From Nanobdellota archaeon (GTDB taxonomy: Archaea > Aenigmatarchaeota > Aenigmatarchaeia > QMZP01), in assembly GCA_043814765.1 (NCBI GenBank), contig JBDRJQ010000039.1, forward strand, positions 1-21,178: a stretch of 21,178 nucleotides of DNA. The letters are read 5' to 3'. Position numbers and translations under genes: made by a program. Under the pieces are notes generated by a model, which searched no databases, had not been told where the DNA came from, and worked only from the letters and a program-made list of their open reading frames with translations. This document shows, one piece after another, positions 6,888 through 9,877 of the stretch. Within the stretch, counting starts at the first letter, position 1. Every line of letters starts with the position of its first letter.

Positions 6888-7127
6888 ATGACAAAACTTT
6901 TTGAAGAAATTAAAAAACAGACATTAACACTGGTTATTGCGGCATTCGGATTTGTTGCGGCACTGGTCTGGAAGGATGCAATAACAGAATGGCTAAAACC
7001 ACTATACGGAAGCGCTGAAGGACCACTAGGCTTAACAATTGCAGCATTTGTAGTAACAATTGTAGTTGTAATAGTCACAATAATGCTTGCAAAGCTTCTT
7101 GGACCAAAGAACGGAAACAGTAAATGA
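6888..7127 (+). CDS. DUF5654-family small membrane protein
   Basis: AAFGFVAALVWKDAI motif, two TM helices, and an AGGAGG SD upstream. Confidence 0.8.
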   Translation: MTKLFEEIKKQTLTLVIAAFGFVAALVWKDAITEWLKPLYGSAEGPLGLTIAAFVVTIVVVIVTIMLAKLLGPKNGNSK

Positions 7128-7150
7128 GCTTAGGCTCCTGTTTTATTTTA
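7126..7150 (+). terminator. short hairpin plus T-rich tract
   Basis: GAGC-TTAG-GCTC followed by CTGTTTTATTTTA right after the stop codon. Confidence 0.35.
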
Positions 7151-7160
7151 TCGCCCAATC

Positions 7161-7174
7161 AAAGCTTTTTATAA
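7161..7174 (+). promoter_or_regulatory. archaeal BRE/TATA promoter
   Basis: AAAGCTTTTTATAA about 25 nt upstream of ATG 7197. Confidence 0.6.
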
Positions 7175-7196
7175 TAACACAATTTAATTTTTTCTT

Positions 7197-7481
7197 ATGT
7201 GGAAAAAATTATCTAAAGAGGAGCAGGAAAGATATCACAGAAAATGGATCCGATCCATAATAAAGGATGAAACACCAAGCACTATTAAAAAGCATGTAAT
7301 AAAGCACTCCAAAGAAATCTACAAGAAAGAGCCTGCGAAATGGTCCGCCAGCATGCACAACTTGATTGATATATTTGATGAGATGTTTATTTCTAAACCT
7401 AAGATTGAAAATAAGTTGGAAAGGTTGGAAAATAAGTACAAGAAAAACCCAAGAAGGTACACGAAACCACTGGAAATCTAA
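7197..7481 (+). CDS. basic hypothetical protein (94 aa)
   Basis: Has its own TATA motif. Lys/Arg-rich and likely helical, with no recognisable family. Confidence 0.6.
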   Translation: MWKKLSKEEQERYHRKWIRSIIKDETPSTIKKHVIKHSKEIYKKEPAKWSASMHNLIDIFDEMFISKPKIENKLERLENKYKKNPRRYTKPLEI

Positions 7482-7492
7482 ATTCGTCCCAC

Positions 7493-7506
7493 AAAAGCTT
7501 TTTATA
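7493..7506 (+). promoter_or_regulatory. promoter of the abrB-like/tRNA-His/hisS unit
   Basis: AAAAGCTTTTTATA, the same motif as at 7161. No comparable motif seen between here and hisS. Confidence 0.6.
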
Positions 7507-7555
7507 CATACTAATTAACAGTATAACATAACTCTTGGTAGTGATTAGAAAGTTG

Positions 7556-7585
7556 GACGGCTTATATTATATGAAGCAAGCCGTC
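7556..7585 (+). promoter_or_regulatory. leader hairpin / inverted repeat
   Basis: GACGGCTT-N14-AAGCCGTC, a perfect 8-bp GC-rich stem in an AT-rich region. Confidence 0.6.
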
Positions 7586-7658
7586 GGAGTTTATATGAAA
7601 AGTGGTTTAGTTCATCAGAGATGAAGAAAGGCAAATTCTTAGTTCAACCACTAGAAAA

Positions 7659-7883
7659 TTGCGCATAGATTATAAGGGCAGAATTTCCATCCCCGCAGAC
7701 TTAAGGCGCTCGTTCGGTCTGAACGGAGAAGTATTTCTAGAATTTGATCTGAAAGAAGGAATAATTTTATTATATGGCCAGAGTGGTGTAGTGGCTAGCA
7801 TAAGAGACTGTGGATCTCTTGACGCGGGTTCAATTCCCGCCTTTGGCCCTAATCAAAAAAGAGGTGATATAGATGAAAGATGA
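7659..7883 (+). CDS. AbrB/MazE/SpoVT-family DNA-binding protein, C-terminus encoded by a tRNA-His gene
   Basis: RIDYKGRISIPADLRRSFGL..V.LEFD...IILL matches the swapped-hairpin motif (DxKGRIxIPxxxRxxLGL). TTG start is uncertain and the frame is open from 7611. Confidence 0.7.
   Translation: MRIDYKGRISIPADLRRSFGLNGEVFLEFDLKEGIILLYGQSGVVASIRDCGSLDAGSIPAFGPNQKRGDIDER
7776..7848 (+). tRNA. tRNA-His (GTG), with encoded G-1 and C73 and no encoded CCA
   Basis: Acceptor GCCAGAG/CTTTGGC, D stem GTGT/GCAT, anticodon arm AGAGA-CTGTGGA-TCTCT, T arm GCGGG-TTCAATT-CCCGC. G-1 (7776) and C73 (7848) form the His identity pair. Confidence 0.92.
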
Positions 7884-8038
7884 TTCAGTTCATTGAATAT
7901 AAAATAGAAGATATTCTCGACAGCTTCGATAAACCATACTATATGATAAAACCAGAGGATGTGGAAAATAAGTTCGGTAGATATGGTAGAGAATTGTTTG
8001 AGGATTATCTGATAGAAAATTTATTAGGAACTGGCTGA
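7880..8038 (+). CDS. small acidic hypothetical protein (52 aa, not in ORF track)
   Basis: MIQFIEYKIEDILDSFDKPYYMIKPEDVENKFGRYGRELFEDYLIENLLGTG*. ATGA overlap with the AbrB-like stop and GAGGTGA at 7861-7867. Confidence 0.55.
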   Translation: MIQFIEYKIEDILDSFDKPYYMIKPEDVENKFGRYGRELFEDYLIENLLGTG

Positions 8039-8056
8039 ACATATTTCAGCTGGTTC
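8028..8056 (+). promoter_or_regulatory. 12-bp RNA hairpin just upstream of the hisS RBS
   Basis: GAACTGGCTGAA-CATAT-TTCAGCTGGTTC with two G-U pairs. AAGGAG at 8068-8073. Confidence 0.55.
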
Positions 8057-8079
8057 AACAAACTATAAAGGAGAAGATT

Positions 8080-9336
8080 ATGTCGTTTAAGCGCCCTAAA
8101 GGAACCCGGGATTTTCTTCCCGAGGATATGGTGAAGAGAAGATGGCTGTTTGACATAGGTAGGCCTGTGTTTGAGAAGTATGGTTATGGTGAGATAGAGA
8201 CGCCTGCATTTGAGACGCTGGAGCTCCTGACGTGCAAGGACAGTCTTGGTGATGAGGCTGTCAAGGACATTTACAGATTCAAAGACAAGGGCGGAAGGAA
8301 TCTAGGTCTTAGATTTGATCCAACTACACCAATAGCACGTGTCATTGCTTCAGACAGATCATTGAAGCTCCCAGTAAAATGGTGTTACAACTTTGTTCCA
8401 ATGTGGAGATATGAAGACACTGCAAAGGGTCGATACAGAGAATTCTACCAAGCAGGTGTAGAGTTTATTGGTTCATCTGCTCCTGAAGCAGACGCTGAGG
8501 TGTTAATGGTTGTAATAGATTATCTTTTAGCTGCTGGTTTAAAGAATTTCACGCTGCGCATCAACAGCCGCAAAGTGCTTGATGTGCTGGCAAAAAAGCT
8601 TGCAATAAACAATCCAATGGATGCATTCAGGATTCTTGACAAACTGGACAAGCAGGGAGAGAAGCAGGTTAAGGCGGAGCTTTCAGAGTTCCTTGATGAA
8701 AAACAGATAAGTGAAATATTTCACTTCATAAAACTTTCACCAGAAGGAGCAAGGAGTTATCTTGGCATGAAAGCACTGGATGTTGAAGAAGTTGTCGCTG
8801 CGATGCCGGCAAAATACAAGAAGTTTGTAAAGGTGGATTTCAGCATAGCTCGGGGACTGGATTACTACACAGGCTTCATATTCGAGACACTTATTAAAGG
8901 GCAGGAAAGCCTTGGCAGTGTTGCCTCTGGAGGACGCTATGACAATCTTATAGAAAAGTATGGCGGCGAGCCTACGCCTGCTACAGGTGTTGGCATAGGT
9001 GTTGAAAGGGTTTTGGAAATTCTTGAAATAAAGAAAATGTTTCCCAAAAATCTCCGCGCAGGGCCAAAGGTCTTTGTTATCCCAATAGATGAAAAAACAA
9101 AGAATGAAGCTTTCCGCATGACGCAGGAGCTCCGCTCTAAAGGAATATCCGCAGACACGGATATTGCTGGAAGGAAGTTCAAAAAGAACCTTGATTACGC
9201 TGTTTCTCAGGGAATCCCTTATGTCATAATAATTGGTGAAAAGGAGATCAAACAAAAAAAATACGTTCTAAAAGACATGAAAGCCAGAAAGGAGAGTAAG
9301 TTATCTATTTCTAGCATTGTGAAGAAATTGAAATAA
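8080..9336 (+). CDS. hisS: histidyl-tRNA synthetase
   Basis: PKGTRDFLP, LRFDPT, WRYE...GRYREFYQ, RGLDYYTG, GGRYDNL, GIGVER, and a C-terminal anticodon-binding domain. Confidence 0.98.
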   Translation: MSFKRPKGTRDFLPEDMVKRRWLFDIGRPVFEKYGYGEIETPAFETLELLTCKDSLGDEAVKDIYRFKDKGGRNLGLRFDPTTPIARVIASDRSLKLPVKWCYNFVPMWRYEDTAKGRYREFYQAGVEFIGSSAPEADAEVLMVVIDYLLAAGLKNFTLRINSRKVLDVLAKKLAINNPMDAFRILDKLDKQGEKQVKAELSEFLDEKQISEIFHFIKLSPEGARSYLGMKALDVEEVVAAMPAKYKKFVKVDFSIARGLDYYTGFIFETLIKGQESLGSVASGGRYDNLIEKYGGEPTPATGVGIGVERVLEILEIKKMFPKNLRAGPKVFVIPIDEKTKNEAFRMTQELRSKGISADTDIAGRKFKKNLDYAVSQGIPYVIIIGEKEIKQKKYVLKDMKARKESKLSISSIVKKLK

Positions 9337-9368
9337 TCACTTAACCAGCTTCAAGTGCGCACAGGATT
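9333..9368. repeat. direct repeat copy 1 (displaced DUF357 3' end)
   Basis: ATAATCACTTAACCAGCTTCAAGTGCGCACAGGATT, 33/36 identical to 9874-9909. Confidence 0.92.
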
Positions 9369-9374
9369 AGCAAT

Positions 9375-9412
9375 AACTTTATAAACCATAGACTTCTATA
9401 GATTACTATGGT
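9375..9412 (+). promoter_or_regulatory. TA promoter and palindromic operator
   Basis: AACTTTATAAA TATA followed by the dyad ACCATAG-act-TCTATAGA-tta-CTATGGT (9385-9412), which overlaps the antitoxin ATG. Confidence 0.7.
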
Positions 9413-9626
9413 AACGTCGATACAAATAAGTGAAAATCTTCAACACAAACTGAAGGATAGAAAAATTTCAGATAGCGAAAGTTATGAAGAGGTTATTTGG
9501 GATCTGATTGAGGATACTATGACTCTGAGTGAAGAGACAAAAAAGGAGCTTGCCGAAGCAAGGGAAGAGATTAAGGAAGGCAAATTTGTAACTCTTGAAC
9601 AGATTAAACAGGAGATGGAAGACTAA
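9408..9626 (+). CDS. archaeal RelB-like antitoxin
   Basis: N-terminal TSIQIS..L..KL....ESYEEVIWDLIE DNA-binding-like segment and an acidic tail (AREEIKEGKFVTLEQI). TAATG coupling to the toxin. Confidence 0.85.
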   Translation: MVTSIQISENLQHKLKDRKISDSESYEEVIWDLIEDTMTLSEETKKELAEAREEIKEGKFVTLEQIKQEMED

Positions 9627-9877
9627 TGTATACAGTTTTGTTGTCTCTAATTGCAAAGAGGCAATTACAAAAACTCGAAAAAAATCTTCAAAAGAGAATA
9701 ATAGCAGTTCTTGAAAGAATAAGACTTCATCCAGAAAAATATGTAAAAAGAATTGTAGGTGACAGAGGATACAGGCTTCGCGTGGGTGATTATAGAATAA
9801 TTATGGATATAGATAAAGAAAAACTCCTTATCCTTGTTATAAAAATCAGCCATAGAAGAAGTGTTTACAAAGGATAA
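9626..9877 (+). CDS. relE: RelE/ParE-family toxin (mRNA interferase)
   Basis: MYTV....AKRQLQKL, YRLRVGDYRII and C-terminal HRRSVY. Confidence 0.93.
   Translation: MYTVLLSLIAKRQLQKLEKNLQKRIIAVLERIRLHPEKYVKRIVGDRGYRLRVGDYRIIMDIDKEKLLILVIKISHRRSVYKG

Follow-up and report, generated by a model that had tools for sequence, protein, structure and literature searches.

A candidate histidine-sensing +1 frameshift operon translated through a tRNA-His gene in the Aenigmatarchaeota

How does a ribosome enter an open reading frame (ORF) that runs straight through a tRNA gene, and why is that frame kept open? The question is raised by an archaeal contig of 21,178 nucleotides (nt), called the window below, which is contig C39 of a genome assembly (G000) of 859 kb in 39 contigs, with 37% GC and 88% completeness. 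In the window, a tRNA-His gene lies inside the gene for a small AbrB-like protein, upstream of hisS, the gene for histidyl-tRNA synthetase (HisRS). An earlier note on this DNA, made from the sequence alone, had drawn attention to the embedded tRNA. We conclude that the finding is real, conserved and unusual, and the conserved sequence features themselves are solid. We read the locus as the probable head of a histidine-responsive operon, in which a promoter is followed by a mini-ORF, the AbrB ORF through an extra tRNA-His, a second leader with a small ORF, and hisS. As for how it would work, we lean modestly towards a histidine-sensing +1 frameshift operon that is translated through tRNA-His.

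Related loci were collected from 91 genomes of the same order and from 371 genomes of the phylum. The tRNA genes were called with ARAGORN, Rfam, BLAST and nhmmer, protein families were assigned with Pfam, and the fold of the AbrB-like protein was predicted with AlphaFold2 (AF2) on an alignment of 28 relatives. All window features given below lie on the forward strand.

A reading frame that crosses tRNA-His

ARAGORN called tRNA-His(gtg) at 7777-7849, and Rfam placed a match to RF00005 at 7777-7848 (62.5 bits, E 1.4e-12). Reading of the sequence adds a G-1 at 7776 that pairs with the discriminator base C73 at 7848, an acceptor stem GCCAGAG/CTTTGGC, and the anticodon GTG; the D-loop GG and the T-loop TTC are both intact, and CCA is not encoded. 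The three sources thus agree with the earlier note, which had described a canonical tRNA-His at 7776-7848 with G-1:C73 and GTG. The note was also right that this tRNA lies wholly and in frame within a same-strand ORF at 7659-7883 (TTG start, 74 amino acids (aa)), and that the remaining two forward frames meet TAG in the tRNA (GTG GTG TAG and AGT GGC TAG). The hisS gene starts at 8080, 231 nt after C73, and extends to 9336 (Pfam tRNA-synt_His 2.3e-50, HGTP_anticodon 6e-18).

The arrangement, which might have been peculiar to one genome, recurs widely. When the 64-aa peptide made up of AbrB and the tRNA-encoded part was used in a six-frame search, 58 of the 91 genomes in the order gave a match at E ≤ 1, and 48 of the 371 in the phylum did so at E ≤ 1e-5, including 12 outside the order that belong to the same class. 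AbrB ORFs in phase with tRNA-His were found at about 40 loci in at least 11 families of one class (Aenigmatarchaeota). The earlier note had also allowed that in relatives the AbrB ORF might stop early or run in other frames. In none of the about 40 fused loci is there a stop before or within the tRNA, and the phase of G-1 relative to AbrB is identical in 27 of 27 loci, with linkers of 0-17 aa. The ORF ends 13-70 nt past the tRNA in 37 loci and continues into the next gene in three. Two long frames were seen as well. In one genome (G077:C83; L066/L131) AbrB, a tRNA with an 85-nt insert and a HisG match share a single open frame of 358 aa, and in another (G055:C13; L060) the ORF continues for 336 aa into an Asp/Glu racemase-like gene, as judged by eye, Pfam having confirmed only the homologue in G081.

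Insertions and deletions within the tRNA tell the same story at a finer scale. They occur in 15 fused loci, 13 of which show a net change divisible by three, a count that includes one 85-1 case and one compensated +1/-1 case. The inserts in fused tRNAs measure 18, 30, 36, 45, 48, 63, 79 and 85 nt, lie in the T-loop, the D-loop or the anticodon loop, and are probably non-canonical introns. Among unfused tRNA-His genes, the intron length is a multiple of three in two of six, and three or four have in-frame stops. Two loci listed in frame 2 in our table of insertions and deletions (L053 and L023) are artefacts of a 75-nt panel sequence; L053 is in phase in the 27-locus count, and L023 was checked by hand from its ARAGORN coordinates.

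One genome (G007) shows the frame kept where the protein domain is damaged. On its contig C37 the AbrB domain is internally deleted and the frame is still preserved, and on contig C14 a single open, histidine-free frame leads from the leader cassette described below through an intron-bearing tRNA-His to hisS, with the AbrB domain absent. A mobile-element origin, in which the tRNA would be an attachment (att) site or be overlapped by an SSV-type integrase gene, was set aside, because synteny with hisS and hisG holds in at least 11 families and no integrase lies nearby.

The structure of the embedded tRNA has been maintained along with the frame. Across 26 relatives the cloverleaf is 98.4% paired, with compensatory changes on both sides in 14 of 22 pairs, which is the stem covariation that the earlier note had proposed to test for. 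G-1:C73 is found in 26 of 26 relatives and GUG is invariant. Judged by this covariation, the embedded tRNA structure is under selection.

What protein does the frame encode? By itself, the N-terminal 40 aa of the window protein match MraZ and MazE_antitoxin only below the Pfam cut-offs, and the match to PF04014 reaches 18.4 bits, under the cut-off of 24.7. PF04014 is matched by 26 of 28 relatives (best E 8.4e-10), and a profile of the 28-relative family finds SpoVT (2ro5, 1.2e-5) and AbrB (1z0r, 3.8e-5) in PDB. AF2 gave a predicted local distance difference test score (pLDDT) of about 85 for residues 1-40, with a strand-strand-helix-strand-strand order (E2-3, E9-10, H13-18, E25-30, E35-40). 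The tRNA-encoded part and the tail score under 50 and are predicted to be unstructured. By profile and predicted fold, the N-terminal part of the ORF is an AbrB/SpoVT domain. The tRNA-encoded peptide and tail, predicted to be disordered, show no conservation beyond what the tRNA sequence dictates. Substitutions between close pairs, counted by codon position, number 126, 78 and 254 in the AbrB domain and 85, 68 and 123 in the N-terminal extension, so that the third-position excess is clear in the former and weaker in the latter. A reading as a type II antitoxin of the MazE/VapB type was rejected: there is no toxin partner, the ORF at 7880-8038 has no Pfam family, and the neighbours in relatives are hisS, hisG and hisI.

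The profile comparison also shows that AbrB and SpoVT domains start about eight residues ahead of the ‘xD-x-GR’ motif. The window protein is therefore expected to include residues upstream of the TTG at 7659.

The leader cassette and its histidine codon

The frame that contains AbrB (frame A) is open in the window from 7611 to 7883 and comprises an N-terminal extension, the AbrB/SpoVT domain (about 7653-7775), the tRNA-encoded peptide and a tail; the ORF at 7659-7883 that the earlier note described is its 3' part. It opens at TAG|TTC (7608-7613), directly within leader mini-ORF 1 (MKSGLVHQR*, 7595-7624), which has GGAG ahead of it at 7586-7589. The proposed +1 shift site, GTT CAT C, occupies 7610-7616 with a Shine-Dalgarno (SD)-like AGTGG ahead at 7601-7605, and one +1 step here would give a product of 95 aa without histidine.

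The same design recurs in the relatives. The Val/Leu-His frame of the motif has an ATG in 29 of 29 loci, mostly with GGTGA 5-10 nt ahead, and a zero-frame stop follows 0-25 codons past the histidine codon. All 35 motif copies fit GG(T/A)G(A/G)-N4-NTT-CAY, and TTCA is invariant in 35 of 35. The codon that would occupy the P site is GTT in 33 copies and CTT in two; further loci have ATT, TTT and, in one case, TCC-C. The AbrB frame is the +1 frame of the mini-ORF, and 18 of 29 loci have TAG|TTC exactly at its opening. The spacing between TTC and the ‘D’ codon of AbrB takes 12 different lengths between 51 and 105 nt, and every one of them is a multiple of three (29/29). The 91 genomes contain 50 occurrences of the pattern ATG-N3-18-GGTGA-N4-GTTCAY, compared with five of the reversed control. 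The SD-like element is complementary to the anti-SD sequence at the 16S rRNA 3' end of G000, GGATCACCTCC.

In six of the 29 loci, and in four more of a distant clade, the open AbrB frame contains no ATG, GTG or TTG at all, and elsewhere the candidate starts are scattered at positions that are not conserved. As read from these loci, the AbrB ORF is without a reliable start codon of its own. In 14 loci, including the distant clade (L096-L106), the motif occurs in two tandem copies. In every case the ATG shares the phase of the upstream copy, which stands at an offset of +1, so that two successive +1 steps would reach AbrB. In a simulation that took the nearest productive ATG and made a +1 step at each NYY-CAY, AbrB was reached in 42 of 42 loci, and 37 of these needed one or two shifts.

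The composition of the frame points in the same direction. The 42 simulated products together contain one histidine, and the AbrB frame has a single histidine codon among about 4,400. There are no histidine codons among the 2,088 codons of the N-terminal extension and AbrB, nor among the 1,499 of the tRNA-encoded part and tail, compared with 1.6% in the long ORFs of the genome (P about 3e-15, with the reservation that kin are not independent). The histidine-codon frameshift cassette of the leader, overlooked by the earlier note, is the likely sensor, to judge from these regularities.

Two further observations on the leader should be mentioned. A hairpin at the shift site that might be a downstream stimulator, TTCATC-AGA-GATGAA (7611-7625), was seen by eye in G000, in the same-genus genome G001 and in L034; it is not general. 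We also considered, and rejected, a model in which the leader GUUCAY pairs with the embedded tRNA's anticodon loop: the frame evidence accounts better for the motif, and the TCC-CAC of L096 does not fit.

At its downstream end, the AbrB-tRNA ORF mostly terminates on the next cistron's start codon, the cistron being hisS, hisG, hisI or a leader. Of 37 loci, 27 have the stop within -14 to +13 nt of an SD plus ATG, and ten of the 27 show an ATGA overlap of the kind found in the window; five further stop/start overlaps look alike by eye. Such overlap is the usual signature of translational coupling, so stops before the tRNA and insertions that are not multiples of three would be selected against. 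In the window the stop (7881-7883) overlaps the ATG at 7880 (ATGA) and also a second leader mini-ORF (MKDDSVH*, 7873-7896), and the ORF tail contains the SD of the next cistron, GAGGTGAT (7861-7868), which is complementary to the 16S 3' end. Mini-ORF 2 has a second GTT CAT site at 7888-7893, and in its +1 frame lies a histidine-free ORF of 52 aa between the tRNA and hisS (7880-8038), for which a search against Pfam matched no family.

Second cassettes after the tRNA occur in 13 other loci. In four of them HisG-like proteins lie in the +1 frame (Pfam HisG in three), as HisG (9e-27) or as a HisG-HisI fusion (2.5e-18 plus 4e-34). G083 and G067 have a small ORF in the position of 7880-8038, followed in the former by hisS and in the latter by a gene for an aromatic amino acid (histidine-type) ammonia-lyase. 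Where an AbrB locus lacks the tRNA, either hisS, hisI or a second cassette comes next, and in one case hisS overlaps by ATGA. The order AbrB-tRNA-hisS, whose conservation the earlier note had made a point of interest, holds in a looser form: hisS lies downstream on the same strand in many genomes, at 4 nt to 2.4 kb, and tight adjacency is not kept.

Some features of this interval are recorded here as side observations. Small histidine-free ORFs of about 50-58 aa (7880-8038 in the window; L037 534-710, minus strand; L041 1780-1947) stand between the tRNA and hisS or the ammonia-lyase gene; two of them end in ...YVTSG(L/M)G, none has a family, and they might be leader or coupling ORFs. In G001 (L033 619-1350, minus strand) the start of a 238-aa protein, which weakly matches phosphoribosyltransferases, overlaps the post-tRNA cassette MKMEKGELVHKQR*; a 183-aa ORF comes after this protein, and then hisS.

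The promoter is shared as well. An alignment of the 200 nt upstream of 30 loci shows a constant order: an upstream box, a TFIIB recognition element (BRE) with TATA, GGTGA about 31 nt on, an ATG within 5-10 nt, and the mini-ORF. The upstream part, (G/T)TCCCAC followed after about 6-8 nt by a TTTAAATA-like box, is found in nearly all related loci, including the distant clade, and only 16 combinations of CCCAC with a TATA-like sequence occur in the 859-kb genome. In the window, the GTCCCAC box, a candidate operator or promoter element, is at 7486-7492, upstream of the BRE/TATA, and the TATA-like box TTTTTATA, which aligns with CTTTAAATA of the relatives, is at 7499-7506 rather than at 7493, where the earlier note had put it. 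We infer the transcription start site from the leader GGTGA about 31 nt past TATA in relatives. Between the promoter and mini-ORF 1, the window has a 44-nt insertion (7548-7591) that is missing from G001. It carries an 8-bp inverted repeat, forming the hairpin GACGGCTT...AAGCCGTC (7556-7585), and brings an extra in-frame ATG at 7571.

We also considered a regulon extending over the G000 genome and gave it up: the strict cassette pattern matched only by chance inside genes and missed the window's own weak sites, and the only other occurrence of GTCCCAC with TATA (C33:9771) has nothing relevant downstream.

A possible mechanism and its rivals

How might these parts work together? In the frameshift model, ribosomes would initiate at the mini-ORF. 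With ample His-tRNA(His), CAY would be decoded, termination would follow a few codons on, and the downstream RNA would be left free of ribosomes; the tRNA would then fold and be excised by RNase P and RNase Z, and the his genes would be severed from the leader. With scarce His-tRNA(His), the A site would stand empty, and the P-site tRNA on NTT would re-pair on TTC, a +1 step aided by the SD-like element as in the bacterial release factor 2 (RF2) gene. Because the slowly decoded A-site codon is histidine, the shift rate would report the supply of His-tRNA(His). The shifted ribosome would make the histidine-free AbrB protein and melt the tRNA in passing, thereby blocking its excision, and termination on the next start codon would feed the cassette or gene beyond it, which is hisS in the window and hisG, hisI or hisS in other genomes. 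Finally, the AbrB protein would probably bind the GTCCCAC box and adjust transcription, through either activation or repression.

Two proposals of the earlier note, whose interpretation is supported in part, find a place in this model. That one transcript is both mRNA and pre-tRNA fits with a tRNA that abuts coding sequence and with a conserved promoter found only upstream of the leader. Competition between ribosome transit and excision by RNase P and RNase Z was a reasonable suggestion, and the stop/start coupling supports it. A more ambitious claim would be that the locus is a new kind of ribosome-based histidine sensor. Here, a single or tandem +1 cassette with a hungry histidine codon would gate a histidine-free AbrB ORF through tRNA-His, passage and excision would be mutually exclusive, coupling would extend to hisS, hisG and hisI, and the tRNA would be product, processing switch and coding part at once. 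This claim we hold tentatively, at slightly less than an even chance.

Several points weigh against a frameshift sensor. An in-frame ATG offers an alternative start for AbrB in five of the 42 simulated loci. At the hisG cassettes the +1 frame is open from an internal GTG or ATG, and the ORF at 7880-8038 has its own ATG; because of these starts, a frameshift is not strictly required at either. On re-pairing in the +1 frame, positions 2 and 3 of the codon pair, and position 1 pairs only for CTT and TTT, so that the usual GUU on UUC makes two of three pairs. The spacing of the SD-like element differs between the GGAGG and GGTGA types, with no one spacing that aligns both, and the elements of the window are weak (AGTGG at site 1, GATGA at site 2). 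As for the fusion, two loci, L052 (+79 nt) and L100 (-1 nt), shift phase inside the tRNA and yet stay open, and introns of unfused tRNA-His genes are also often stop-free in that frame, which makes openness alone weak evidence. In G001 the promoter, leader, AbrB and tRNA are kept, and two genes (238 and 183 aa) stand between the tRNA and hisS. The counts come from related metagenome-assembled genomes, and as these are kin, independence is overstated. Finally, in the part of a 2021 review of archaeal recoding that was available to us, one -1 frameshift is given as proven and +1 shifts are merely suggested (a haloarchaeal virus, Mg chelatase), so that by this source cellular +1 frameshifting is undemonstrated in archaea (PMC8211752).

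The alternative that survives best is leader-peptide control without a frameshift, although we consider it unlikely. Here the histidine mini-ORF would be a stalling sensor and no more, and pausing of a ribosome at CAY would remodel the RNA or leave the region occupied. The AbrB-tRNA ORF and hisG would each have an initiation of their own, either at a near-cognate or internal codon (GTG, TTG or ATG) or through termination-reinitiation. Such in-frame starts do exist, namely the TTG at 7659, the ATG in five of 42 loci, the GTG or ATG of the hisG cassettes and the ATG of 7880-8038, and the mini-ORFs stop close to the downstream frame. The difficulty lies in the six of 29 loci and the four of the distant clade whose open AbrB frame offers none of these codons, in the lack of conservation of the other starts, and in the first strand of the AbrB/SpoVT domain, which needs residues upstream of ‘xDSKGR’. 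Moreover, stalling gives no reason for the lock on multiples of three, the opening at TAG|TTC or the +1/+1 phasing of tandem sites, and a ribosome stalled at CAY would cover a start codon 9-11 nt upstream.

A second alternative starts from the tRNA itself. The embedded tRNA might be a mimic or operator resembling that of thrS, mainly a cis-acting HisRS site or processing signal in the his-operon mRNA instead of a source of tRNA, and HisRS occupancy would then govern the passage of ribosomes or the stability of the RNA. This is compatible with a frameshift sensor; we rate it a shade less probable than stalling. It gains from the presence of other tRNA-His genes. The earlier note had implied that the embedded gene is the only tRNA-His of the genome, which is incorrect: G000 has a second tRNA-His(GUG) at C37:1273-1415 (L062 274-416), with an encoded G-1 and an intron of about 70 nt at the canonical position, which ARAGORN overlooked with and without its intron mode and which BLAST and nhmmer recovered. 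A separate tRNA-His(GUG) accompanies the fused copy in at least ten genomes (G000, G016, G023, G027, G044, G049, G056, G068, G074 and G076). In the single-contig genome G057, on the other side, the fused copy is the sole tRNA-His detected, with the proviso that intron-bearing copies are easily missed.

The fused copies themselves also differ in how complete they are. The D-loop GG and the T-loop TTC are both lost in four of 26 intronless fused copies (L036, L038, L060 and L061, from G015, G074, G055 and G019) and in L052 (G060), the T-loop reading TGAAAAT or similar. These elbow-less copies retain all stems, G-1:C73 and GUG; C33 or A37 is found in several others. The pattern points to some fused copies being tRNA-like elements and not standard tRNAs. 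The loss of the elbow while G-1:C73 and GUG, which we take to be the HisRS identity elements, remain invariant (26/26) favours a cis-acting role related to HisRS or RNase P in those lineages, and the presence of hisS downstream in many loci would suit a mimic. Against mimicry as a general explanation, the window tRNA is fully canonical at 62.5 bits, and mimicry alone leaves an open, in-phase, histidine-free ORF unexplained.

Some apparent copies were dropped from these counts: second tRNA-His genes in L072, L074 and L078 are actually tRNA-Asp(GUC), and three covariance-model matches proved to be Arg, Tyr or Asp tRNAs. It may be added that in the whole G000 assembly just 23 tRNAs were called, many of them intron-bearing.

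Neutral read-through, in which an ordinary small AbrB gene happens to precede a tRNA-His that lacks stops in its phase, is very improbable: that phase is indeed intrinsically stop-free (the other two meet the D-loop TAG), unfused genes are often open too, and the disordered tRNA-encoded peptide and tail are not independently conserved, but chance would hardly leave about 40 loci of AT-rich genomes with no stop before the tRNA despite linkers of 0-17 aa, a phase identical in 27 of 27, changes in multiples of three in 13 of 15, an ORF end on the next start codon, no histidine codons, and a frame that G007 keeps with its AbrB domain internally deleted or missing.

Known systems and neighbouring features

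The closest parallel to the frameshift model is the gene for bacterial RF2 (prfB), which is autoregulated by a programmed +1 frameshift. Like the cassette as we model it, it has a short zero-frame ORF, an internal SD-like element a few nt upstream, a P-site codon ending in UU that can re-pair one base forward and a slow A-site codon; the abundance of a decoder is sensed, and the functional product lies in the +1 frame. The hungry codon here is a sense codon, His CAY, read by a tRNA, whereas in RF2 it is a stop codon read by the protein that is made. Here, too, the sensed molecule would be encoded within the shifted ORF of the same transcript, tandem sites occur in many loci, the organisms are archaea, and the shift is a proposed one.

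In the his operon of enterobacteria, a leader peptide with a run of seven histidine codons controls attenuation. The likeness is that histidine codons in a leader ORF would report the supply of charged tRNA-His and control his genes. The locus differs in having one histidine codon per site, at one or two sites; a run of consecutive histidine codons in the leader peptide is absent. No terminator/antiterminator alternative was identified, and the proposed read-out is a change of frame together with translational coupling.

Control of synthetase genes by tRNA is represented by the E. coli thrS operator and by T-box leaders, which resemble our locus in that the leader of a synthetase gene contains an element shaped like the cognate tRNA or able to sense it. 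Our locus has an entire tRNA, G-1 and anticodon included, which is set inside an ORF at 231 nt from hisS, and HisRS binding to it is hypothetical. In a permissive scan of 7000-9500 for a T-box or other Rfam family, only the tRNA was found. In mitochondrial tRNA punctuation, embedded tRNAs are cleavage signals for RNase P and RNase Z that cut the mRNA. Those tRNAs lie between ORFs and are untranslated, whereas here the ORF crosses the tRNA and cleavage would compete with translation. We know of no T-box or classical attenuation in archaea, and to our knowledge the way in which their synthetase and biosynthesis genes respond to tRNA charging is largely obscure.

Two further cases involve frameshifting. 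Antizyme uses a +1 frameshift at a stop codon as a eukaryotic polyamine sensor (PMC8211752), and, as in our model, the shift is both sensor and effector of a homeostatic circuit; as described there, antizyme senses a small molecule and involves neither a tRNA gene nor operon coupling. Frameshifting in the E. coli pheL leader, again in the leader peptide gene of an amino-acid operon, is described as apparently incidental (PMC3082878) and, in the portion of that source at hand, is not reported as a route to a downstream functional protein. By analogy, then, the locus would work like a cross between the +1 autoregulation of RF2 or antizyme and his attenuation, with a site resembling tRNA punctuation placed inside the ORF.

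A full-text literature search, with subscription journals outside its range, found no paper on a histidine-codon frameshift sensor, on a tRNA inside a translated ORF or on recoding in Aenigmatarchaeota. The locus is a concrete, testable candidate with short, defined sequence elements. If the model is true, archaea would gain their first cellular +1 programmed frameshift, and the locus would also be the first natural amino-acid sensor based on frameshifting at a hungry codon and the first conserved ORF translated through a tRNA gene. There are also consequences for annotation: AbrB, hisG and leader ORFs of this type will be overlooked by gene callers or given a wrong start, and ARAGORN, as run here, missed most intron-bearing copies of tRNA-His.

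Two features away from the leader may be recorded. Relevant to the proposed excision step is a candidate RNase P RNA in G000 (C29:6798-7150; L145), probably a divergent one, which matches the archaeal model over its full length at 57.8 bits (E 5e-16), short of the 84 at which Rfam sets its gathering score. Just downstream of hisS, at 9408-9877, lies a putative type II toxin-antitoxin pair, in which a 72-aa ORF with weak matches to VAPB_antitox and DUF7557 overlaps an 83-aa ORF of the ParE_toxin family (E 5e-10).

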